From an uncultured Acidobacteriota bacterium (lineage in GTDB: Bacteria; Acidobacteriota; Vicinamibacteria; Vicinamibacterales; SCN-69-37), in contig CAVTYZ010000022.1 of the NCBI GenBank assembly GCA_963739035.1, forward strand, positions 57,334-121,333: 64,000 nucleotides of DNA, in the 5' to 3' direction. The translations under genes were made by a program, and so were the position numbers. The notes under the pieces are model-generated. The model was not told where the DNA came from. It made no database searches and was given only the letters and a program-made list of their open reading frames with translations. Positions 44,880 to 54,642 of this stretch are shown here, piece by piece. Every line of letters begins with the position of its first letter. Position 1 is the first letter of the stretch.

Positions 44880-46685
44880 TCAGCTGTCTTGCCCCACCTT
44901 CAGCACGGCAAGGAACGCTTCCTGCGGGATCTCGACGCGCCCGACGCGTTTCATGCGCTTCTTGCCTTCCTTCTGCTTCTCGAGGAGCTTTCGCTTCGCG
45001 AGATGTCGCCACCGTAACACTTCGCGAGCACGTTCTTCCGAAGCGCGCTGACGGTTTCGCGTGCGACGATGCGGCTGCCGATGGCGGCCTGAATGGCGAC
45101 CTCGAACATCTGGCGCGGGATGAGCTCGCGCATCTTCGACGCCAGCGCGCGGCCGCGCGCGTAGGCGTTCTCCTCGTGGACGATCATCGACAGGGCATCG
45201 ACGGGTTCGCCGTTCACGAGGATGTCGAGCTTGACCAGCGGCGATTCCCAGTAGCCGGTGACGTGATAGTCGAGCGAGGCATAGCCCCGCGAGATGGTCT
45301 TCAGCCGGTCGTAGAAGTCCAGCACGACCTCGTTGAAGGGCATTTCGTAGGTGACGAGCACACGGTTCTGCGAGACGTACTCGAGACCCTTCTGGATGCC
45401 GCGCTTCTCCTGGCAGAGCTCGAGGATGCCGCCCACATGTTCGTTCGGCGTGAGCATCATCGCGGTGATCACGGGCTCCTCGAACTCCGCGATTCGGCCC
45501 GGCTCAGGCAGCTTCGCGGGGCTGTCGATCTCGTGGACGGCCCCGTCGGTCGTGGTCACGCGGTACAGCACGCCCGGCGCGGTCGTGATCAGGTCCTGGT
45601 CGAACTCACGCTCGAGGCGCTCCTGAACGATTTCCATGTGGAGCAGGCCGAGGAACCCGCACCGGAAGCCGAAGCCCAGCGCCACCGACGTCTCTGGCTC
45701 GAAGAAGAACGAGGCGTCGTTCAGCCGGAGTTTCTCGAGCGCCTCCCGGAGCTCCGCGTACTTCGATCCCTCGACCGGATAGAGCCCGGCGAAGACCATC
45801 GGCTTCAGCTCTTTGAAACCCGGAAACGGCGCGTCGGTGGGACGACCGACTTCGGTAATCGTGTCGCCGATTTTGGCGTCGGCGACGTTCTTGATGTTCG
45901 CGACCATGAAGCCGGCTTCACCGACACCCAGCTCGGTCACGGGCACGGGTTTCGGCGAGAACACACCCAGTTGTTCGACCTGAAACTCCTGGCCCGTGAT
46001 CATCAGGCGAATCTTCTGGCCGGGCCGCAGCACGCCGTCGATGATGCGGGTCAGAATGACCACGCCGCGGTACGGGTCGTACCAGGAGTCGAAAATGAGC
46101 GCCTTGAGCGGCGCGTCGGGGTCGCCAGTCGGCGGCGGCAGACGCTGAACGATCGCTTCGAGGATCTCCGCCACGCCGCGCCCTTCCTTGGCGCTCGCCA
46201 GGATGGCTCCGGACGCATCCAGGCCGATGATCTCCTCGATCTGGCGCCGCGCTTCTTCCGGCTGCGCGCCGGGCAGGTCGATCTTGTTGATGACCGGGAT
46301 AATCTCGAGGTTGTTCTCGACCGCGAGGTAGGCGTTGGCCAGCGTCTGGGCTTCGACACCTTGCGACGCGTCCACGAGGAGCAGCGCGCCTTCGCAGGCC
46401 GCGAGCGAACGCGTCACTTCGTACGAGAAGTCCACGTGGCCCGGCGTATCGATCAAGTTCAGGATGTAGTCCTGCCCGTCGTTCGCCCGGTAGGTCAGGC
46501 GAACCGCGTGCGCCTTGATGGTGATGCCGCGCTCGCGCTCGAGGTCCATGCTGTCGAGGACCTGCGCCTCCATCTCACGGGCCTGCAAGCGCGCCCGTCA
46601 GCTCGAGGAAGCGGTCGGCCAGCGTCGACTTGCCGTGGTCGATGTGGGCGATGACGGAGAAGTTCCTGATGTAGCGTTGATCCAT
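44880..46685 (-). CDS. lepA: Elongation factor 4 (frameshifts near 46595 and 44995)
   Basis: [51 protein letters not shown]. Confidence 0.97.
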
Positions 46686-46720: not shown

Positions 46721-47271
46721 CTAGTCTCGCCGGGCCAAGGCGGTGCGTCGTGATGTTGCCTTCGACCACCGCGCCGGCAAAGGCGACGAGCACGTGCCGG
46801 TCCGCGACCGATGAGGGTCAGTGTCCATGCGGCGCTCGAGCCGGGCTCACGAGCGACTGCGATGAAGGCCCGGTCAAAACTGTAAATCTCGATTTTTTCA
46901 GCCCGGTGAATCCGTCGGCAGAGAGCTGTCGCAGCCACTGGGCCGTGTCCTTGTGCGTGTACACCACGACCGGTCCGCGGCCTTGCTGGCCCGATGCAGA
47001 CGCCCGCCGTCCGGCGATCCGATCTCGGCCCACACCCGCACGGCGCCGGTGAGATCACGAACGGCGAACGTCGGCTCGTCTGGATCCGACAGACCGGTCG
47101 AGAACTCGATGCCATCGTCGTATCCAGGCAATACGCGAGCACGCGAGCGACCAGGTACTCCTCACTCTCCGATGGATGACGAGCGACACGAAGGGCGAGC
47201 GACTCGTAGCGGCCGCGGTCGGTGTCGGCCAGGTCGATGTCGAACGTATAGACGGTCGCGGTCAGCGCCAC
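46721..47271 (-). CDS. yaeQ: YaeQ family protein (heavily frameshifted)
   Basis: ALTATVYTFDIDLADTDR..YESLALRVARHPSES.EYLVARVLAYC, GLSDPDEP, DLTG..W.EIG.PD. Confidence 0.85.
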
Positions 47272-47290
47272 GGGAGTTGGGTGGCGGAAT

Positions 47291-48808
47291 CTATCGCAGC
47301 CGCGCCGCCTCTCGCCGGACCTCGTCTTCGGTGAACGCGGCAAAGACGAAGGGCTGGGCCTCGAGAAAGGCCGTCAAATCCTTGAGAGAGAGACCGAGCG
47401 CGGCAAGGCGTTCCTCGTCCACGAAAATCTGGGAGTTCTCCGGCTCGTAGTATGGAACCAGTTGGGCGCCCGGATCGAACTTCGCGTGGAGTGACGCGAT
47501 GATGTCAGGAGCGAAGTAGCGGCCCCCGGTGGCCGGCGGGTTCGTCGGCATACCGTGGTCGCCGGTGATGGCGACGAGGTAGTCCTTCCCGACGCGCGCC
47601 TCGATCGCCTGAAGAATCCGCGCGAGGTTGCGATCGAGCTCACCGAGCGTGGCCGCGAGTTCCGGCGAATCCGGACCGTGCTTGTGACCGACGTAGTCTG
47701 CCGTCTTGTAGTTCAAGAGCAGCAGGTCCGGAACGGCGTCATCTCCGACGCCCTGTGTTTCGATCAGACGTACGAAGGTGTCCGCCTCGAAACGCGAGAA
47801 GAGCGCCGAACGGCGGATCTCCGAGACGGTGTCGACCTTGTGGCCCATCCACAGGCCGTCGGCCGGAAAGATCTGGCGCGAATCGAAGCTGTCCAGCTGA
47901 CGCGGCATCGTGAAGCAGTCCGGATCGGTTTTCCAGACTCCGGCGGTCTCGTCGTAGGCCGCATGCACGACCGGAAATCCGGCGGTCTGACAGGCTCCGT
48001 GACCTGCGAGCGAGACGCTCGCCGGCAAACTGCTGCCTTGGGCGATGACACGGCCGCCGCGGCCCGCGTGCATCTGCCACACGTCCGACAGCGTCAGGGC
48101 CACAAGGTCGCGCGGATTCCAGTCGTCGAGCGTGTCGTGTCGCTGGCGTGTCACCCGATCAAAGAAGTTGTTGCCCGTGATGCCGTGCACCCGCGGCTCC
48201 GCGCCCGTGGCGATGGTCGCGTGACCCGCGCCTGTGTTCGTCGGCAGAAAGTTCACCTCGGCGTTGCCGAACCACGCGCCGGCCTTTCGAAGGCCCGTCA
48301 GCGTCGGCATGACGGGCGCATGGCGGTCGAAGTAGTCCGGCCGCATCCCGTCGAGCACCAGCAGGAAGACCGCACGCGGTTTCGGCGTCGCGGGCCTGAT
48401 GCCTGGCAGGACCTTGCCGGTCGCCGTGCGCGGCATCGCAACACCCAGTGCGGAGGCGATCGTCACCGCGACGTCCTGCTGCACGGCAGGTATGGCGTAG
48501 GTCCCCGGGGTGACGCCGACACCCGAAAACAGCATCGGGATCCGACGGTCGTACGCCCAGGGCGACCCGTGCATGTACGGCACGCTCGTCTCGGGACGCG
48601 TGAGGATCGTCCCCTCCCGCGGAACGATCAGAACCTGACCGGTGCGACCTGGAAAGTACCCGCGCGCAAACATCGTGAGGAACTGCGCGCGCTGGGCGGT
48701 CCGCGTTGGCCGCGGGGCCTGCGGCGCCGTGGACTGGCGCGCGAGACCGGCCGCGGTCGTGAGGCCGATGAGAATCGCAGTTGTGCCGAGGCGCCTGAGA
48801 GGGGTCAT
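47291..48808 (-). CDS. Alkaline phosphatase superfamily (PafA/NPP-type) protein with permuted motif order
   Basis: Intact 505-aa ORF with signal peptide; motifs LVLDGMR, TNTGAGHAT, DYVGH, TGDHG, with HGSPWAYD placed N-terminally. Confidence 0.88.
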   Translation of the reverse strand: MTPLRRLGTTAILIGLTTAAGLARQSTAPQAPRPTRTAQRAQFLTMFARGYFPGRTGQVLIVPREGTILTRPETSVPYMHGSPWAYDRRIPMLFSGVGVTPGTYAIPAVQQDVAVTIASALGVAMPRTATGKVLPGIRPATPKPRAVFLLVLDGMRPDYFDRHAPVMPTLTGLRKAGAWFGNAEVNFLPTNTGAGHATIATGAEPRVHGITGNNFFDRVTRQRHDTLDDWNPRDLVALTLSDVWQMHAGRGGRVIAQGSSLPASVSLAGHGACQTAGFPVVHAAYDETAGVWKTDPDCFTMPRQLDSFDSRQIFPADGLWMGHKVDTVSEIRRSALFSRFEADTFVRLIETQGVGDDAVPDLLLLNYKTADYVGHKHGPDSPELAATLGELDRNLARILQAIEARVGKDYLVAITGDHGMPTNPPATGGRYFAPDIIASLHAKFDPGAQLVPYYEPENSQIFVDEERLAALGLSLKDLTAFLEAQPFVFAAFTEDEVRREAARLR

Positions 48809-48868
48809 CGCTGCAAGGATACGTCACGCATCCGCCGGGCTCACACGAACTCGAAGAATGTCGAACGG

Positions 48869-49830
48869 TCAGCGCTTGAGACGTCTGCGCGCCACCGAGG
48901 CGGTGCGTGCCCAAGGCCGGGCCGGCTCCCGCGCCGGCGATGCAAACGGCGGGTGGTCTACCACCAGCTGGACGAAGTCCCTGACGTACGGCACGCGCGC
49001 CACGTCTTTCAGTGCGGCAGCGCTCCAGGTGCGCTTGTAGCCATGGCGCGTAAACGGCAGGGCGCGCACCGCGCCGGCCCGTACCGCCGGGTCGACAGCC
49101 CATCTCGCAAGGGCGGCGACGCCCAGACCCGCCTTCACGAGCTCGATCAACGCTTCGGTCAGTTGCACCTGCTGCACGACGGGAGTCACGCCGGCAGCCA
49201 CCAGATACCTCTGGTAGAACGTGCTGTCTTCCTTGGGCGAATACGTCAACACCGTCTCGTCGGCGAGGTCCTCTGGTCGCACGAACCCTCTCGCGGCCAG
49301 CCGATGCCGCGGGTTGACGATCACGAGGACCTCATCGTCGAACAGCCGGGTCGTCTGAATCCGTCGATCCCGGACCGGGTCGCTCACGATGGCGAGGTCG
49401 AGTCGTCCTTCGAGCAGGTGCGCGATCGGGTCGGCGGTGGCGGCCGCATCGATGCGAATGTCGATCTCCGGATGCGCGGCCCGGTAGCGCTTGAGCAGCG
49501 CGGGCAGCCAGTGGTAGCAGGTGTAGCACTCCGTCGTGAGCCGAAGCAGGCCGCGCTTGGCGCCCGCAGAGGTGGCGAACCGCGTCTTCCGTCCGCTCGA
49601 TCGTCGGCAAGGACCTCGTTGGCGGATCGCAAGACGCGCTCGCCGGCCGGCGTCAGCACCATGCGCTTTCCGACGCGCAGGAACAGCGGCGCGCCCAGGC
49701 GCGACTCGATGTCGCGCAGCTGGTGGCTGAGCGCCGACTGCGTGAGGTGGAGCGCGGCACCGGCCCGCGTCAGGCTGCCGGCGGCGCTGACTTCACGCAC
49801 GAGCCTCAGGTGCCGAACCTCGAGGTCCAT
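48869..49830 (-). CDS. LysR-family regulator, MetR-like (frameshifts near 49590 and 49385)
   Basis: LEVRHL, HLTQSALSHQLRDIE..LG.PLF.R; TECYTCYHWLP in the alternate frame; LVKAGLGVA. Confidence 0.9.
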
Positions 49831-49845
49831 GCGTCCAACCGTAGC

Positions 49846-49860
49846 ATGAACATCGTTCAT
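49846..49860. promoter_or_regulatory. LysR operator palindrome
   Basis: ATGAAC-ATC-GTTCAT (T-N11-A; TGAA-N5-TTCA) between divergent starts. Confidence 0.7.
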
Positions 49861-49918: not shown

Positions 49919-50600
49919 ATGACGTGGTCCGGCAGCGTGGCGATGCTGGGGCTGGTGATGGCCCTCGCGTATGCCCCGACGAGCTCGATGGCGTTCGCGA
50001 TCGACATCACGGCGCTCATGCCGATGTCCGACGTCGCAGCTCCGAGCGATGGTCAGCGAAACCGCGGCGCTCTGGAAGCCGCACGGTGTCGTCTTCAGGT
50101 GGAGTGCCGTGGCACGTCGGGATCCACTCCGCACGGTGAGGTGAGGGTCGTCAGCGATGGCTGTGTCGGCCGATCTGCCTTCCGGCAGGCACCAACGCAG
50201 GCGTGTCGCGGCCTGCAGCGCCGCTCGGCGCTGTCGTCTTTGTCGAGGAAGCACCACCCCGGAGAACACGCTGATGCTCTCGGTGGACGCAGTGGTTCAG
50301 ACCGTGGAAAGCGTCAAATGGCAGAATCGAGCCCTCGCCGACCTGCCGGGCAATTCCGCGGTCACCTCATCGGGCGTGCCTTGGGCCGTGTGCTCGCCCA
50401 TGAAATCGGGCACTATTTGCTCGCCTCGCGCTTCCACGCTCCGGACGGGCTGATGCGGCCCGAGTTTCGTGCCGATCAGCTCATCGCGCTGAGTCGGCGT
50501 CAATTCAGATTATTGGAGGGGCAGTTGCCGTGGTTACGCCTTCGGTTGGCACACCTGGCTGATGGGCCGCGCGAGATCGCCTGGGGAACCTCATTGATAC
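49919..50600 (+). CDS. Hypothetical secreted protein with HExxH zincin-like motif (frameshifted, end uncertain)
   Basis: Signal-like N-terminus; GRALGRVLAHEIGHYLLASRFHAPDGLMR. Confidence 0.6.
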
Positions 50601-52012
50601 AAGCTGTCCAGAAATCCGCTCTCGTCCAGTTCGCGCATCAAGCTGTCGTCGTAGAAACTCTCGGGAGTGTGCCGGCGCATCTCGCTGGAGTCGTAGAACT
50701 CCATCGCCTTCTTGATGCCGTCGTAACACGGAAAGGGTTTGCGAGGAAAAGACTCTCCTCGGTCATAGATTGCGTCAGCGAGTTCAGTCACCCATGTTGC
50801 CGTTCCACTTCGCCATGGTCTGACGCGCGAGTTCGGGGTTCCGATGGAAGAGCGCGAAACCTTCCGCCGAGGCTTTCAGAAAACGGAGCGCCACGTCGCG
50901 GTGCCCTGGGACTTTCAACCAGTCCAGGTCGACGAGAACACTGTTGCCTGCTATCGGGTCGTTCCAGTCGAGGGTGTCCGCGAGGATCGGATAGCCTTCC
51001 GCCTGAAGCTCAGCGAGGTTGCGCTCCTCAGCGACGATCGCGTCCACGACTCCGGTCCTCAAGGATTCCGCATCGCGACCGAATTGCAGAATCGAGATGT
51101 CGAGGTCAGGATCCCATCCCATCCGTCGTGCCAGCAGTTGTGCGACAAACGTGGTCGTTGACCGCTGGAGATTGACGCCGAGTCGTTTGCCTTTGAGATC
51201 TTCCAACCGCTCGAAGCCCCCGCTTTCCGACAATGAGCGATACGGGCCGTGCAGTCGCCACCGGCTAAGGCAATCATCGGCGGAAAATTCGCCTCCGTCA
51301 CCATTCGGTACATGATCGGCGAATGACCGTCGACGAGAATGTCAGGACGCGCGGGCCGATTGAACTGGCTCGCTGAAATTTCGCTCTCGCCTTCCGCCGG
51401 CGGTATCCACAGGGAAACATTCAGACCGTATTTTTCGAAGATCCCTTGGTCCATGGCGATCACGAACGGGACTTTGCTCAGTGCCCGCGCGTTGCCGAAG
51501 ACCACCTGCACCGGGATCCCGCCAGACGCCTTCTGACTCCACAACCCAGTGATACCGAGGATGAGAACGGCGTGAATCACGAAGCCGTAGGCTCGCCGCC
51601 GTTGCAGCACGATCGGCAACACGGCGAGCGAAACGGCAAGGAACATCGACAGCGCCGCGACCGTCGCCGCTGCGGGAATGTCAGGGCGAAAGCTCAGAAG
51701 GGCGAGTGCGAGTCCGTAGACGCTGGCTCCTGCGACTATGACATCCAGCACCCCGCGCAGCGTTCTTTCGGCCGCACCAAAGCGACCACGAGTTGCCAGG
51801 CCGAGGTATGCGGCCCCCATCGCGAGGACGAAAGGCATCCAAGTCAGCGGCACAGAGGCCACCGATTCGCCCCACTGGTAGTAGGCGGGAACGGCCAGAA
51901 CGATCGCCAGGCCGAGGGCGTGCCAGATCGTCCAGAAAAGCGGACGGCCTGATGGCGTGTCGTGCTTTGGAGAGTTTGGAGAGTGAGATATCACGCCGGC
52001 AACCCGCGTCAA
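50591..52012 (-). CDS. Multi-TM N-terminus fused to NMT1/SsuA-type substrate-binding domain (frameshifts)
   Basis: About 5 hydrophobic helices, then VPFVIAMDQGIFEKYGLNV, LEDLKGKRLGV, FLKASAEG, YDDSLMRELDESGFLDSLY. Confidence 0.7.
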
Positions 52013-52086
52013 TTCACCCGAGCTGTGCGTGTGGAAGGGCTCGAGGCCGAGCGCCTCAAGCCTTCCATGACTGATTGCGCAGGAGA

Positions 52087-52293
52087 CTACTTCAATCTGC
52101 GACGCGCGCGCAGCCAGAGCATGCCCCCGCCCAGCAGCGCAAGGCCTGCCGACAGCGACGCGCCGCTGATCTCCGGTGCTACGCCAGCGACCAGTGTTTC
52201 AGCGGCGAGCGGCGTTCCGAAAGCCACCATCGCCACAACGGCCACTACTAAGCCCAAGCTCACTCGTTTGACCAAGTCGCTGATTCCTCGCAT
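52087..52293 (-). CDS. 68-aa secreted mini-protein with PEP-CTERM/VPEID-CTERM-like tail
   Basis: GAGGAG SD; MRGISDLVKRVSLGLVVAVVAMVAFGTPLAA-ETLVAGV-APEISGASLSAGLALLGGGMLWLRARRRLK. Confidence 0.75.
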   Translation of the reverse strand: MRGISDLVKRVSLGLVVAVVAMVAFGTPLAAETLVAGVAPEISGASLSAGLALLGGGMLWLRARRRLK

Positions 52294-52414
52294 ACCACGC
52301 TCCTCGCTGTCGAACAGCAGGGCTAAGACCCTAACAACCATCGTCCCGTGGCCAGCACGTGCGCCTGGAAATCGTTCGAAGCGTCGCGGGCGAGAAGTGC
52401 AGAGGCCCTTGCTT

Positions 52415-52430
52415 AGCAACTGGCGTGCCG
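52415..52430 (-). promoter_or_regulatory. sigma54 (-24/-12) promoter
   Basis: Minus strand CGGCACG-CCAG-TTGCT about 120 nt upstream of the mini-protein ATG. Confidence 0.7.
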
Positions 52431-52560
52431 TTCACGACACGATTGCCGATTCGTCCATGAGCGGACCGGCTATGGGAATAAGTCGGCCTGAGGCTGACTT
52501 TGGTCCCCTGCGCGGGAACCGTGACAGACGAACGGCCCGCCCAGAACGAGCTCGGACACC

Positions 52561-53409
52561 TCAGCTGTCATACGTGTAGCCTCGAAGAAATGCGTAGCGA
52601 GCTTGCCGGGCCTCGATGCTCGCACGCTGGTCCGCGGTATAGCCCGCCTTCGTCCGACTCCTCGAAGGCGACGCAAAGACGATCCTGGCGCAGTCGGCGA
52701 GGTAGGACCGCGACGGAACGATCCCGACGAACTGGCACATCCCCTGAAGACTTTCGACCGGTGCGGCGATCAGGTCCTCGTGTCGCAGGTGCAGCACCTC
52801 CGACGAATCGCAGCGCCGCAAGGTCCCCGCGACCGCGTCGCACAGCGAAAAATACGTCCGCGCGGCCTCTTCGACGGACCAGGACCGGCGCGCCGCGATC
52901 GTGGCGATATTGTCGAACGGGTTGCGCGTCACATGGATCACACGAAGAGGGACCTCGACCGTACGTCGCAGGCGCTCGAGTAGTGCCGGGTTTTGGCCGA
53001 GTCGGCGGGCGGTGCCGGCACCCTTCTTGTCGCCGATGACACGCAGACCTTCCGTGCGGCCCTGAGACTGATTGGGAATCGTGTAGGAATATCCCGTCCA
53101 CTCGCAGCCTCGGCGGCAGAACCACCGGTCGCGGTCGACGAGCAGCGAAAACAGGGCGTCGCGCCCGAACCCCATGTCCACGTACTGCAGCGCGTCCAGT
53201 TCGTGCGCGATCAGGGCGTTCGGATGCGCGTTGAGCATGGCGCCGGGCAGCGTGTGGCCGCTGCGCGGATATCCGAGAAACAGACAGAAGCGTTCGACGC
53301 CGGCGAAATCCGCGCGACGCCTCGCCGCACCGATGATCGCGCGCGGGTAGTCCGCGTAGCCCAGGACGAGCTGCGCTCCTCGGATAACCGCACGGCGAAT
53401 CGATCGCAC
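52561..53409 (-). CDS. PAPS-dependent sulfotransferase family protein
   Basis: 5'-PSB-like GYPRSGHT..G.MLNAHP, GDK, 3'-PB-like IHVTRNPFD, LRHEDL. Confidence 0.85.
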   Translation of the reverse strand: MRSIRRAVIRGAQLVLGYADYPRAIIGAARRRADFAGVERFCLFLGYPRSGHTLPGAMLNAHPNALIAHELDALQYVDMGFGRDALFSLLVDRDRWFCRRGCEWTGYSYTIPNQSQGRTEGLRVIGDKKGAGTARRLGQNPALLERLRRTVEVPLRVIHVTRNPFDNIATIAARRSWSVEEAARTYFSLCDAVAGTLRRCDSSEVLHLRHEDLIAAPVESLQGMCQFVGIVPSRSYLADCARIVFASPSRSRTKAGYTADQRASIEARQARYAFLRGYTYDS

Positions 53410-53493
53410 CAGCTGTGGACGATACCTCAGCTGCGGACCTGCCGGACCAACCGTGTCAGGCGGTCGCTGACGTCCGCTCGTGTCGGATGTTTT

Positions 53494-54642
53494 TCACCGC
53501 TGATCCCGTGGTACGACCTGCTGGGGGTAGGAGGGTCCGGTGTACTCCATCCTCGGCCGTATCAGCCGGTTGTTCGCGTACTGCTCGAGGACGTGCGCGG
53601 TCCATCCGGAAACGCGGCTGACGGCGAAGACGGGCGTGTAGAGATCGATCGGAATCCCCAGCGCGTAGAACGTCGACGCCGAGTAGAAGTCCACATTGGC
53701 GTTCAGCTTCTTCTCGGCCTTCACGACAGCTTCGATGCGTTGTGACATCTCGAACCACTGCGGTTCGCCTGAGATTTCGCCGAGCGTTTTCGAGAAGCGC
53801 CGGAGATGGGTCGCACGCGGGTCTTCCGTGTGATACACGCGGTGTCCGAATCCGGCGATTTTCTCCTTGCGCCGAGCTTCGCGCGCACGACGGCCTCGGC
53901 GCGGTCCGGTCCCGCGTCGCGTCCGATCTCGATCAGCATCCGCATGACGTCAGCATTCGCGCCACCGTGAAGCGGTCCTTTGAGCGCGCGCGACACCGGC
54001 GACGATCGCCGAGTGCATATCGGACAACGTCGCCGCGACAACGCGGGCCGCAAACGTCGAGGCGTTGAGCTCGTGGTCGGCGTGCAGAATCAGCGACACG
54101 TCGAACGCGCGTGTGGCCACGGCGGAAGGCCGGTCGCCGGTCAGCATGTACAGAAAGTTCGCCGCGTGACCGAGGACCGGGTCCGGATCGATGGGACCGC
54201 CACCGGCGCCCAACCGTCCCCAGGCCGCCACGAGCGCGCTGATCTGCCCGGTGAGTCGAACTGCCTTCCGGTAGTTCGCCTGCGGCCTGTGATCCGCGGC
54301 CTCGGCATCGCTGTGCGCCAATATCGATGTCAGCGTGCGGAGCGCCTCCATGCCGTCAACCCGCGGCAGCGACCGCATCGCGCGAACGACGCCGTCGGGC
54401 AGAATCCGGGCCGCGGCGAGGGCGGTCTGGAGATCGCCAAGCTCGGCGCGACTTGGCAAGCGTCCGTGCCAGAGGAGGTAGCAGACCTCCTCGAACGTCA
54501 CGCCACGCTCTGCGTCCGCCAGGTCATGAATGTCGTAGCCCTGGTACGCGAGGATGCCGCGGTCGCCATCGAGATAACAGATGGCGGAGGTGCCGACGAC
54601 AACATCCTCCAACCCGGCCTTGGCCTTTTGTTCAGTGGTCAT
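53494..54642 (-). CDS. gltA: Citrate synthase (frameshifts near 53990 and 53865)
   Basis: GLEDV, LHADHELNASTF, LKGPLHGGAN, GFGHRVY, NVDFYS, R.SGW.AH. Confidence 0.93.

Follow-up and report, generated by a model that had tools for sequence, protein, structure and literature searches.

A natural circular permutation in a PafA/PhoK-like phosphatase of an uncultured Acidobacteriota bacterium

PafA of Elizabethkingia meningoseptica (5TJ3, 5TOO) and its relatives are a leading model for the relation between architecture and catalysis, with thousands of PafA mutants measured (Markin et al., bioRxiv 10.1101/2020.11.24.383182), and according to the 2022 PNAS paper on PafA distribution these enzymes are key to the mineralisation of organic phosphorus both in soil and in the sea. 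The canonical linear order of these enzymes runs from the Asp of the N-terminal strand through the Thr, the DxxxH motif and the DH pair to a block carrying the last His. The same order is found in PhoK, or SPAP, of Sphingomonas sp. BSAR-1 (3Q3Q, 5XWI, 5XWK), and also in the nucleotide pyrophosphatases/phosphodiesterases (NPPs; Xac NPP 2GSN, ENPP1-7) and in the phosphonoacetate hydrolase PhnA (1EI6, 3SZY). The window analysed here, a stretch of 64,000 nucleotides from contig CAVTYZ010000022.1 of an uncultured Acidobacteriota bacterium (assembly GCA_963739035.1), encodes at 47291-48808 of its minus strand a phosphatase, hereafter the query, in which this order is broken: the His block stands ahead of the Asp of the N-terminal strand.

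The open reading frame (ORF) of the phosphatase begins with ATG and runs without interruption, and the full length of the query (100%) is covered by a relative of 505 amino acids (P0002) at 96% identity. Residues 36-134 read FARGYFPGRTGQ...MHGSPWAYD...DVAVTIASALG...TGKVL. After a short linker the chain continues as PATPKPRAVFLLVLDGMRPDY...NTGAGHAT...DYVGH...TGDHG...AAFTEDEV, residue 139 opening the usual N-terminal strand (AVFLLVLDGMR). At the point where the query comes to its C-terminal end, canonical relatives continue into the block that is here placed N-terminally. A preliminary description, made from the sequence alone, had proposed a circular permutation on the basis of such motifs, and all the motifs quoted in it were found in the translation in the order given there.

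When the query was compared with the chain sequences of the Protein Data Bank by phmmer, PafA (5tj3_A) ranked first with a whole-sequence E-value of 2.1e-31 and three significant stretches. Query residues 139-228 matched chain positions 13-105 and residues 349-497 matched 272-431, while residues 48-134, which precede both in the query, matched 445-529. The relation to PhoK (3q3q_A) was permuted in the same three-stretch manner (115-222 on 9-119, 348-422 on 277-350 and 32-128 on 441-539). Also the PhoY equivalog model of NCBIfam (NF051873) had its best stretch at query residues 46-134, placed on profile positions 450-538 of 539, with a score of 109.3 bits, below the curated cut-off of 1000. The PafA equivalog model (NF042991) gave 163.4 bits in three stretches, below its curated cut-off of 650. 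The Pfam family PF01663 (Phosphodiest) was matched above threshold (139.8 bits, E-value 2.2e-40, gathering cut-off 23), covering residues 147-424 only and these collinearly on profile positions 1-225 of 342. Neither Pfam nor NCBIfam has a model that spans the protein in its permuted order and scores above cut-off. Its fold and its catalytic residues place the protein in the NPP-type alkaline-phosphatase superfamily, and it is no PafA, PhoK or PhoY equivalog.

The genome also encodes a canonical paralog of 557 amino acids with a signal-like N-terminus (G000, contig C15, about 415158-416831; L002:634-2307), so that both topologies occur side by side in one genome. In BLASTP, query residues 135-430 matched positions 43-382 of the paralog (29% identity, E-value 7e-32), and residues 38-134 matched positions 458-549 (36% identity, E-value 3e-13). 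The swapped order of matches, which the preliminary description had predicted for profile alignments, was thus seen against PafA, PhoK, PhoY, the paralog and 34 canonical cluster representatives. The break points adjoin each other in the canonical relatives: in P0226 the core match ends at position 441 and the C-terminal block begins at 445, and in P0244 the corresponding positions are 434 and 441. The block finishes a few residues before the chain end (position 528 of 530 in P0213). As judged from these alignments, the geometry is that of a clean circular permutation, with a bridge of about four residues between the former termini and with new termini opened at one loop. There is very little doubt that the phosphatase is a real natural circular permutant. 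The features of the gene and of its surroundings are collected in Table 1.

Table 1. Positions of the phosphatase gene, its segments and catalytic residues, and neighbouring genes in the window (position 1 is the first nucleotide of the window)
Feature	Position	Strand	Equivalent or basis
Coding sequence, circularly permuted PafA/PhoK-like bimetallo phosphatase, complete (505 amino acids + stop)	47291..48808	(-)	ORF translation, Pfam
Probable Sec signal peptide, residues 1-23 (MTPLRRLGTTAILIGLTTAAGLA)	48740..48808	(-)	Hydrophobic N-terminus, read from sequence
Relocated 'C-terminal' block, residues 36-134, with HGSPW motif and DxAxT helix	48407..48703	(-)	About PafA 445-529
His80, predicted Zn ligand	48569..48571	(-)	PafA His486; invariant, 163/163; now near N-terminus
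Junction linker PGIR, residues 135-138	48395..48406	(-)	Ties former C-terminus to former N-terminus
Core block, residues 139-497	47318..48394	(-)	Collinear with PafA about 13-431 (SEQRES numbering)
Asp153, Zn ligand by equivalence	48350..48352	(-)	PafA Asp38; 163/163
Thr192, nucleophile by equivalence	48233..48235	(-)	PafA Thr79; 163/163
Ser260-Leu261-Pro262 at canonical K-x-R site	48023..48031	(-)	PafA Lys162, Arg164; alignment
Lys368, family-specific invariant lysine, three residues before Asp371	47705..47707	(-)	163/163 permuted sequences
Asp371 and His375 (DYVGH), predicted Zn ligands	47684..47698	(-)	PafA Asp305, His309; 163/163 each
Asp417-His418 (DHG), Zn ligands by equivalence	47555..47560	(-)	PafA Asp352, His353; 162/163 each, one gap
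New C-terminal tail RREAARLR (8 residues past AAFTEDEV) and stop	47291..47317	(-)	Sequence
lepA	44895..46673	(-)	Model matched in three frames: profile 2-30, 29-563, 561-594
yaeQ	46964..47268	(-)	Model matched in at least two frames: profile 2-51, 51-103; rest not found
LysR-type regulator	48869..49860	(-)	Helix-turn-helix and substrate domains in separate ORFs
ORF of 547 amino acids	42218..43861	(+)	CarboxypepD_reg, several TPR repeats, Ala_racemase_N (pyridoxal-phosphate-binding barrel)
ORF of 282 amino acids	52561..53409	(-)	Sulfotransferase family (PF13469, E-value 8.6e-11)

An artefact of assembly or gene calling, in which a chimeric contig or a frame created by indels brought together pieces of two canonical genes, the 3' end of the first and the 5' part of the second, has to be weighed here, as the genome is only 59.9% complete (3.87 Mb in 22 contigs) and the assembly is indel-rich, with lepA read in three frames, yaeQ in at least two and the adjacent LysR gene split. 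These broken neighbours point to an indel-rich, probably long-read, assembly and not to pseudogenes. Of 8000 candidates scored in the search of proteins clustered at 90% identity, 1325 reached E ≤ 0.001. The best 120 of these (351-567 amino acids, 55-96% identity, 68-100% query coverage) were all collinear with the query across the junction. The exhaustive search of 50%-identity representatives gave 8130 proteins at E ≤ 0.001, of which 314 reached E ≤ 1e-30. A total of 271 fetched relatives were re-scored, a relative being counted as collinear when a phmmer stretch ran across the junction from query residue 100 or before to residue 165 or beyond: 191 were collinear, 34 were canonical, and 46 were fragments or others lacking junction coverage. 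Among the best 150 of the 50%-identity representatives, the corresponding numbers were 72, 34 and 44.

The gene structure was found also in independent public DNA runs. A contig of 3345 nucleotides (run X1, record 1) spans 47200-48900 with 75 differences and no gaps, and the linker is in addition bridged by contigs from two other studies, X2 record 22 (48351-48648) and X3 record 29 (48296-48446). Two joints in single X1 contigs had a shorter side of less than 30 letters and were treated as other organisms or repeats. The preliminary description had argued against misassembly from the intact frame; misassembly is indeed contradicted, by the external relatives, whereas the frame argument is weak alone as the neighbouring genes are frameshifted. 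Its expectations that homologs with the same order exist and that the junction has support in other data were borne out by the collinear relatives and by the contigs of the three runs. Because external relatives keep the permuted order, the artefact question is settled and its probability is practically negligible; with the bridging contigs, this explanation was rejected.

Equivalences to PafA residues were mapped from the phmmer alignments together with the numbering offset seen in the structural comparison by VIA-align, and conservation was counted over 163 full-length permuted sequences. PafA D305, H309 and H486 were presumed to be Zn ligands. D38, D352 and H353 are Zn ligands of PafA according to the active-site passages of Markin et al. 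(bioRxiv 10.1101/2020.11.24.383182), and T79, N100, K162 and R164 are given as active-site residues there and in the entry title of PDB 5TOO. The Thr nucleophile and the six predicted Asp and His ligands of the two-metal site were all found in the query and in 162 or 163 of the 163 sequences (Table 1). The earlier claim that metal ligands and Thr are retained therefore holds for the query and extends, with residues invariant or nearly so, to the whole set. The equivalent of PafA N100, N213, is Asn in 133 of the 163 permuted members.

Since the nucleophile and the ligands are invariant or nearly so across the 163 members, the enzyme is very probably active through the usual two-metal, phospho-threonine mechanism. 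The last ca. 90 residues of the canonical chain, carrying the final His ligand, sit directly behind the probable signal peptide. In the proposed scheme the relocated block would pack into the core, giving His80 to the metal site of a one-domain fold, and catalysis would proceed as in PafA or the NPPs. Thr192 would attack the phosphorus, activated by the Zn held by Asp153, Asp417 and His418. Asp371, His375 and His80 would hold the other Zn, which would stabilise the leaving group before the phospho-Thr intermediate is hydrolysed. The query could instead be a catalytically dead or non-enzymatic derivative, binding phosphate or another ligand with the fold kept after the rearrangement. Such a derivative would fit the absence from the query of Lys162 and Arg164, which bind phosphoryl oxygens in PafA, and the retention of Asn213 in only the 133 members mentioned. 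It is nevertheless very unlikely, as the nucleophile and all six predicted ligands are kept in spite of divergence to about 25% identity, and invariance of catalytic residues at that distance points to purifying selection on catalysis.

The AlphaFold2 model built from an alignment of 54 family sequences had a mean predicted local distance difference test (pLDDT) score of 94.9 and a predicted template modelling score of 0.92, and formed a single domain. Within the full model the relocated block had pLDDT values of 93-98, whereas residues 36-140 folded alone (alignment of 16 rows) reached only 48.4, too poor for a fold search; because of this difference the block looks like an integral part of the core in the model and not like an autonomous or added domain. 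Residues 6-22 were modelled as a helix with low confidence (pLDDT 54-63). A cleavage site would follow the hydrophobic N-terminus (residues 1-23), and there is no lipobox Cys. The phosphatase is predicted to be secreted or periplasmic.

PafA was also the top match of the model in Foldseek (E-value 1.5e-14), with a sequential TM-score of only 0.59. In VIA-align, model residues 139-505 were superposed on positions 24-450 of PafA 5tj3 (Z 30.0, root-mean-square deviation 3.2, 27% identity over 355 residues), and residues 36-134 were omitted although they are well modelled. That sequential aligners skip the N-terminal block of the model is as would be expected of a permutant. PafA is the best match of the query in both sequence and fold. 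The two proteins have in common the Thr nucleophile, the Asn (Asn100 and N213), large auxiliary regions and the ligands of the two Zn ions, but the segment 445-529 of PafA comes after 13-431, whereas its equivalent in the query, residues 48-134, comes first. With PhoK, model residues 135-505 were placed on chain positions 31-444 (Z 27.6, 21-22% identity). The NPPs and PhnA were more distant (Z 16-20 over the core, 17-23% identity). They have the bimetallo core and the Thr nucleophile of the query and, like it, lack the Lys/Arg pair of the monoesterases, but differ in their canonical order, and they are much smaller proteins or carry other accessory domains.

A further difference from PafA lies in the active site and concerns this pair. 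In the canonical relatives the K-x-R motif is complete (K in 35/35, R in 35/35), whereas the query has Ser260 and Pro262 in place of Lys162 and Arg164. At the position of PafA Lys162, K was found in none of the 43 permuted sequences of the tree data set and in none of the larger set of 163. The position of Arg164 was variable in the larger set, with R in 55, P in 63, T in 16, Y in 11 and H in 7 sequences. Position 368 shows the opposite pattern, with K in 43/43 permuted sequences versus S in 34/35 and A in 1/35 canonical ones; PafA has Ala where the query has Lys368. The paralog of the same genome has its K-x-R intact (LKARS) and Ala at the equivalent of 368.

Under the definition of a PafA-like active site in the relevant part of Markin et al., the equivalent of Thr79 is present in the query and those of Lys162 and Arg164 are absent. 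Because it lacks these two equivalents and scores 163 bits against the 650 of the PafA model, the query is PafA-like in fold and yet outside the PafA-type enzymes. In PafA, K162 and R164 touch the phosphoryl oxygen which bears a charge in a monoester and an ester bond in a diester, and the enzyme without both residues is an equally potent mono- and diesterase, as reported in the same part of the preprint (bioRxiv 10.1101/2020.11.24.383182). As Lys162 is absent, Arg164 mostly absent and Lys368 invariant in the permuted family, the substrate preference may have shifted away from the strong monoester preference of PafA, and Lys368 may be a relocated substitute for Lys162. For an enzyme leaning towards diesters, or a generalist, the chances are about even, and some further substrate is unlikely.

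An ordinary PafA-like monoesterase, in which Lys368, perhaps with His270, fully replaces Lys162 and Arg164 so that the topology is new and the chemistry is not, is possible but somewhat less probable than an even chance. The presence of K368 in 163/163 permuted and 0/35 canonical sequences is the pattern expected of a relocated catalytic lysine, R is retained at position 262 in the 55 members mentioned, and in one related locus the immediate upstream neighbour of the permuted gene encodes a PhoD-like phosphatase. Lys162 and Arg164 are however universal in the canonical relatives, and loss of both abolishes the monoester preference of PafA in the results of the preprint cited above. The canonical K-x-R paralog retained in the same genome also suggests non-redundancy, and argues mildly for different roles of the two phosphatases. 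It can be proposed tentatively that the members of the permuted clade form an old enzyme class of their own. Together with the permutation, their phosphoryl-oxygen site would have been rebuilt: no member retains Lys162, most are without Arg164, and all would have acquired Lys368 on the strand leading to Asp371. The substrate preference would then differ from that of PafA, whether for diesters, general or other.

The tree was constructed from 43 permuted and 35 canonical sequences (78 rows) using 372 columns of the shared core (query residues 139-497), a choice made so that the permutation itself would not drive the topology. The permuted and the canonical rows, the latter including the paralog of the same genome, were found on either side of one branch with a support of 100 in the Shimodaira–Hasegawa-like approximate likelihood ratio test (SH-aLRT). 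The order label changed once on the tree, compared with a mean of about 26 changes when labels were shuffled. Identities to the query went down to about 25% in the permuted group, and path lengths within it were similar to those among the canonical sequences. The separation by a single branch together with these low identities makes the permutation look like one ancient event, from which a separate family has since diverged deeply. The permuted order is inherited: it is kept in independent sequences, including the relatives, 17 loci of metagenome-assembled genomes (MAGs), the contigs of other runs and all permuted rows of the one-branch tree.

As to polarity, the canonical order is, on the alignments of more distant sequences, the ancestral one, because distant superfamily members and the Pfam profile place the core in the N-terminal part. 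Phosphonoacetate hydrolase (chain 2-339 of about 401-413 residues) and Xac NPP (chain 44-325 of about 383 residues) align to model residues of about 120-505, and thus by their N-terminal parts only. In NPPs the last His ligand is C-terminal. An unrooted tree alone cannot separate gain from loss, and in principle the PafA/PhoK branch could have begun with the permuted order and acquired the canonical one later. This reversal is scarcely credible in view of these N-terminal alignments, of the Pfam core (147-424) lying on the first 225 of 342 profile positions, and of the C-terminal His of the NPPs, which together indicate that the outgroups share the canonical order.

Circular permutations usually arise when a gene is duplicated in tandem, the copies are fused in frame and both ends are then trimmed, and the permuted phosphatase may have followed this route. 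No leftover duplicated sequence was seen at the new chain ends when they were compared by eye with the canonical paralog, and the cut looks clean. Natural circular permutants are known elsewhere, among them swaposins, some lectins, glucanases and DNA methyltransferases. The event is of the same kind in the phosphatase, with a short linker, new termini at one site, and fold and active site kept, but here it defines a whole diverged family and coincides with a putative relocation of an active-site lysine.

Close relatives (50-85% identity) were present in the 17 MAG loci, all with the permuted order; nine of the loci belong to Acidobacteriota (one of them to Thermoanaerobaculia), seven to Gammaproteobacteria or Steroidobacteraceae and one to Myxococcales. 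Matches at E ≤ 1e-40 were found in 11 of 300 other sampled genomes of the phylum of the window (a tally that includes the unpublished G024), in none of 249 other genomes in the class of G303 (one further genome unscored) and in none of 200 other genomes in the phylum of G302. The family is thus patchy in soil Acidobacteriota, in Steroidobacteraceae and other Gammaproteobacteria, and in Myxococcota, and the runs with near-identical DNA were mostly soil metagenomes. Copies about 56-59% identical occur in three phyla, which together with the patchy distribution suggests horizontal spread among soil bacteria.

Some individual records deviated. The tblastn alignments ended early in L008:4001-5525 (query residue 472), L009:4001-5525 (residue 237) and L024:4001-5426 (residue 225), probably because of frameshift errors in those assemblies too; the ORF of L008 extends to 6085. 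A Prevotella plasmid record matched only the collinear core (143-500).

Taken as a whole, and including catalytic competence, the description of the query as a secreted two-zinc phosphoryl-transfer hydrolase of the NPP/PafA/PhoK branch and a natural circular permutant is highly probable. A few points speak against it to some extent. The correspondence of the N-terminal block to PafA 445-529 in space is predicted from sequence homology, the invariance of His80 and model confidence. Positions 260-262 lie in a divergent region of the alignment, which is anchored gap-free by the invariant G269. The tree came from a quick search with SH-aLRT support only, was free of outgroups, and its canonical rows were those nearest to the query. 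Tandem-duplicated or fused long forms were not found among the proteins of 885-2525 amino acids searched, where two unrelated GPI (glycosylphosphatidylinositol) ethanolamine-phosphate transferases were met; this is weak evidence. Finally, none of the contigs of the RNA run X17 bridges the junction under the 31-letter rule, and carry-over of DNA is possible in that run.

Contigs of this rhizosphere metatranscriptome (X17) were found on five parts of the gene (47553-48891), with lengths of 151-269 nucleotides, 7-12 differences and at least 88% likeness. They hint, if weakly, at transcription of a close relative in soil. The preliminary description had also reported a -10 box, which was not confirmed: a consensus scan covering sigma-70-type promoters found no promoter-like sites in 47000-49100. 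Two terminator-like sites inside the ORF were at chance level.

The gene and its neighbours are all encoded on the minus strand, with yaeQ, lepA and lepB downstream and the frameshift-split LysR-type regulator upstream. When 35 flanking ORFs of nine related loci were compared by Pfam, no shared neighbourhood was found except in L008 (85% identical), the only locus in which lepA and lepB are syntenic with those of the query locus. In a Myxococcales MAG the PhoD-like phosphatase mentioned above lies directly upstream of the permuted gene (L021:1331-3409), and in an Acidobacteriota MAG a TonB-dependent receptor (Plug and outer membrane protein barrel) lies upstream on the opposite strand (L010:343-3762). 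These are possible hints of a phosphorus-scavenging context, unconserved across the loci, and the genomic context yields no functional lead.

Elsewhere in the window, the ORF of 547 amino acids may represent an uncommon gene fusion or the product of an assembly indel that ran two genes together. The ORF with the sulfotransferase match lies a few kb from the phosphatase, and several ORFs within 49919-53745 had no Pfam match.

The names given to the protein and its relatives by the source and by automatic annotation were generic ('hypothetical protein', 'Type I phosphodiesterase / nucleotide pyrophosphatase', 'alkaline phosphatase family protein'), and the ESM Atlas likewise gave generic names only. 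No description of circular permutation in the alkaline-phosphatase superfamily was found in the full-text literature searched, outside which most subscription journals lie, so that an earlier description is possible. What came up instead was a review of SGNH hydrolases, a paper on an iridovirus genome, and work in which permutations were a statistical procedure. The word stem 'permut' is absent from the main text of the PNAS 2022 paper on PafA distribution, where homologs in Acidobacteria are mentioned with no remark on their order. Circular permutation as a phenomenon is well known, while this topology is unrecorded for the superfamily in the literature searched, and the permuted enzymes seem to be a large family of soil bacteria never described before.

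The finding means that the alkaline-phosphatase core tolerates an altered connectivity that carries a metal ligand from the C-terminal to the N-terminal part of the chain. The permuted family offers a natural experiment on the order of folding, on secretion and on the coupling of the active site, and its gain of Lys368 with the loss of Lys162 resembles the relocation of a catalytic residue. Surveys of phosphorus-cycling genes that rely on profiles may under- or mis-count the family, since Pfam matches only those two thirds of the protein that are collinear, none of the NCBIfam models reaches its cut-off, and the names in use are generic. If the permuted clade is truly a distinct enzyme class, marker sets built on PhoA, PhoD, PhoX and PafA would miss or mis-assign it, and it would be an unrecognised contributor to the turnover of organic phosphorus in soil.

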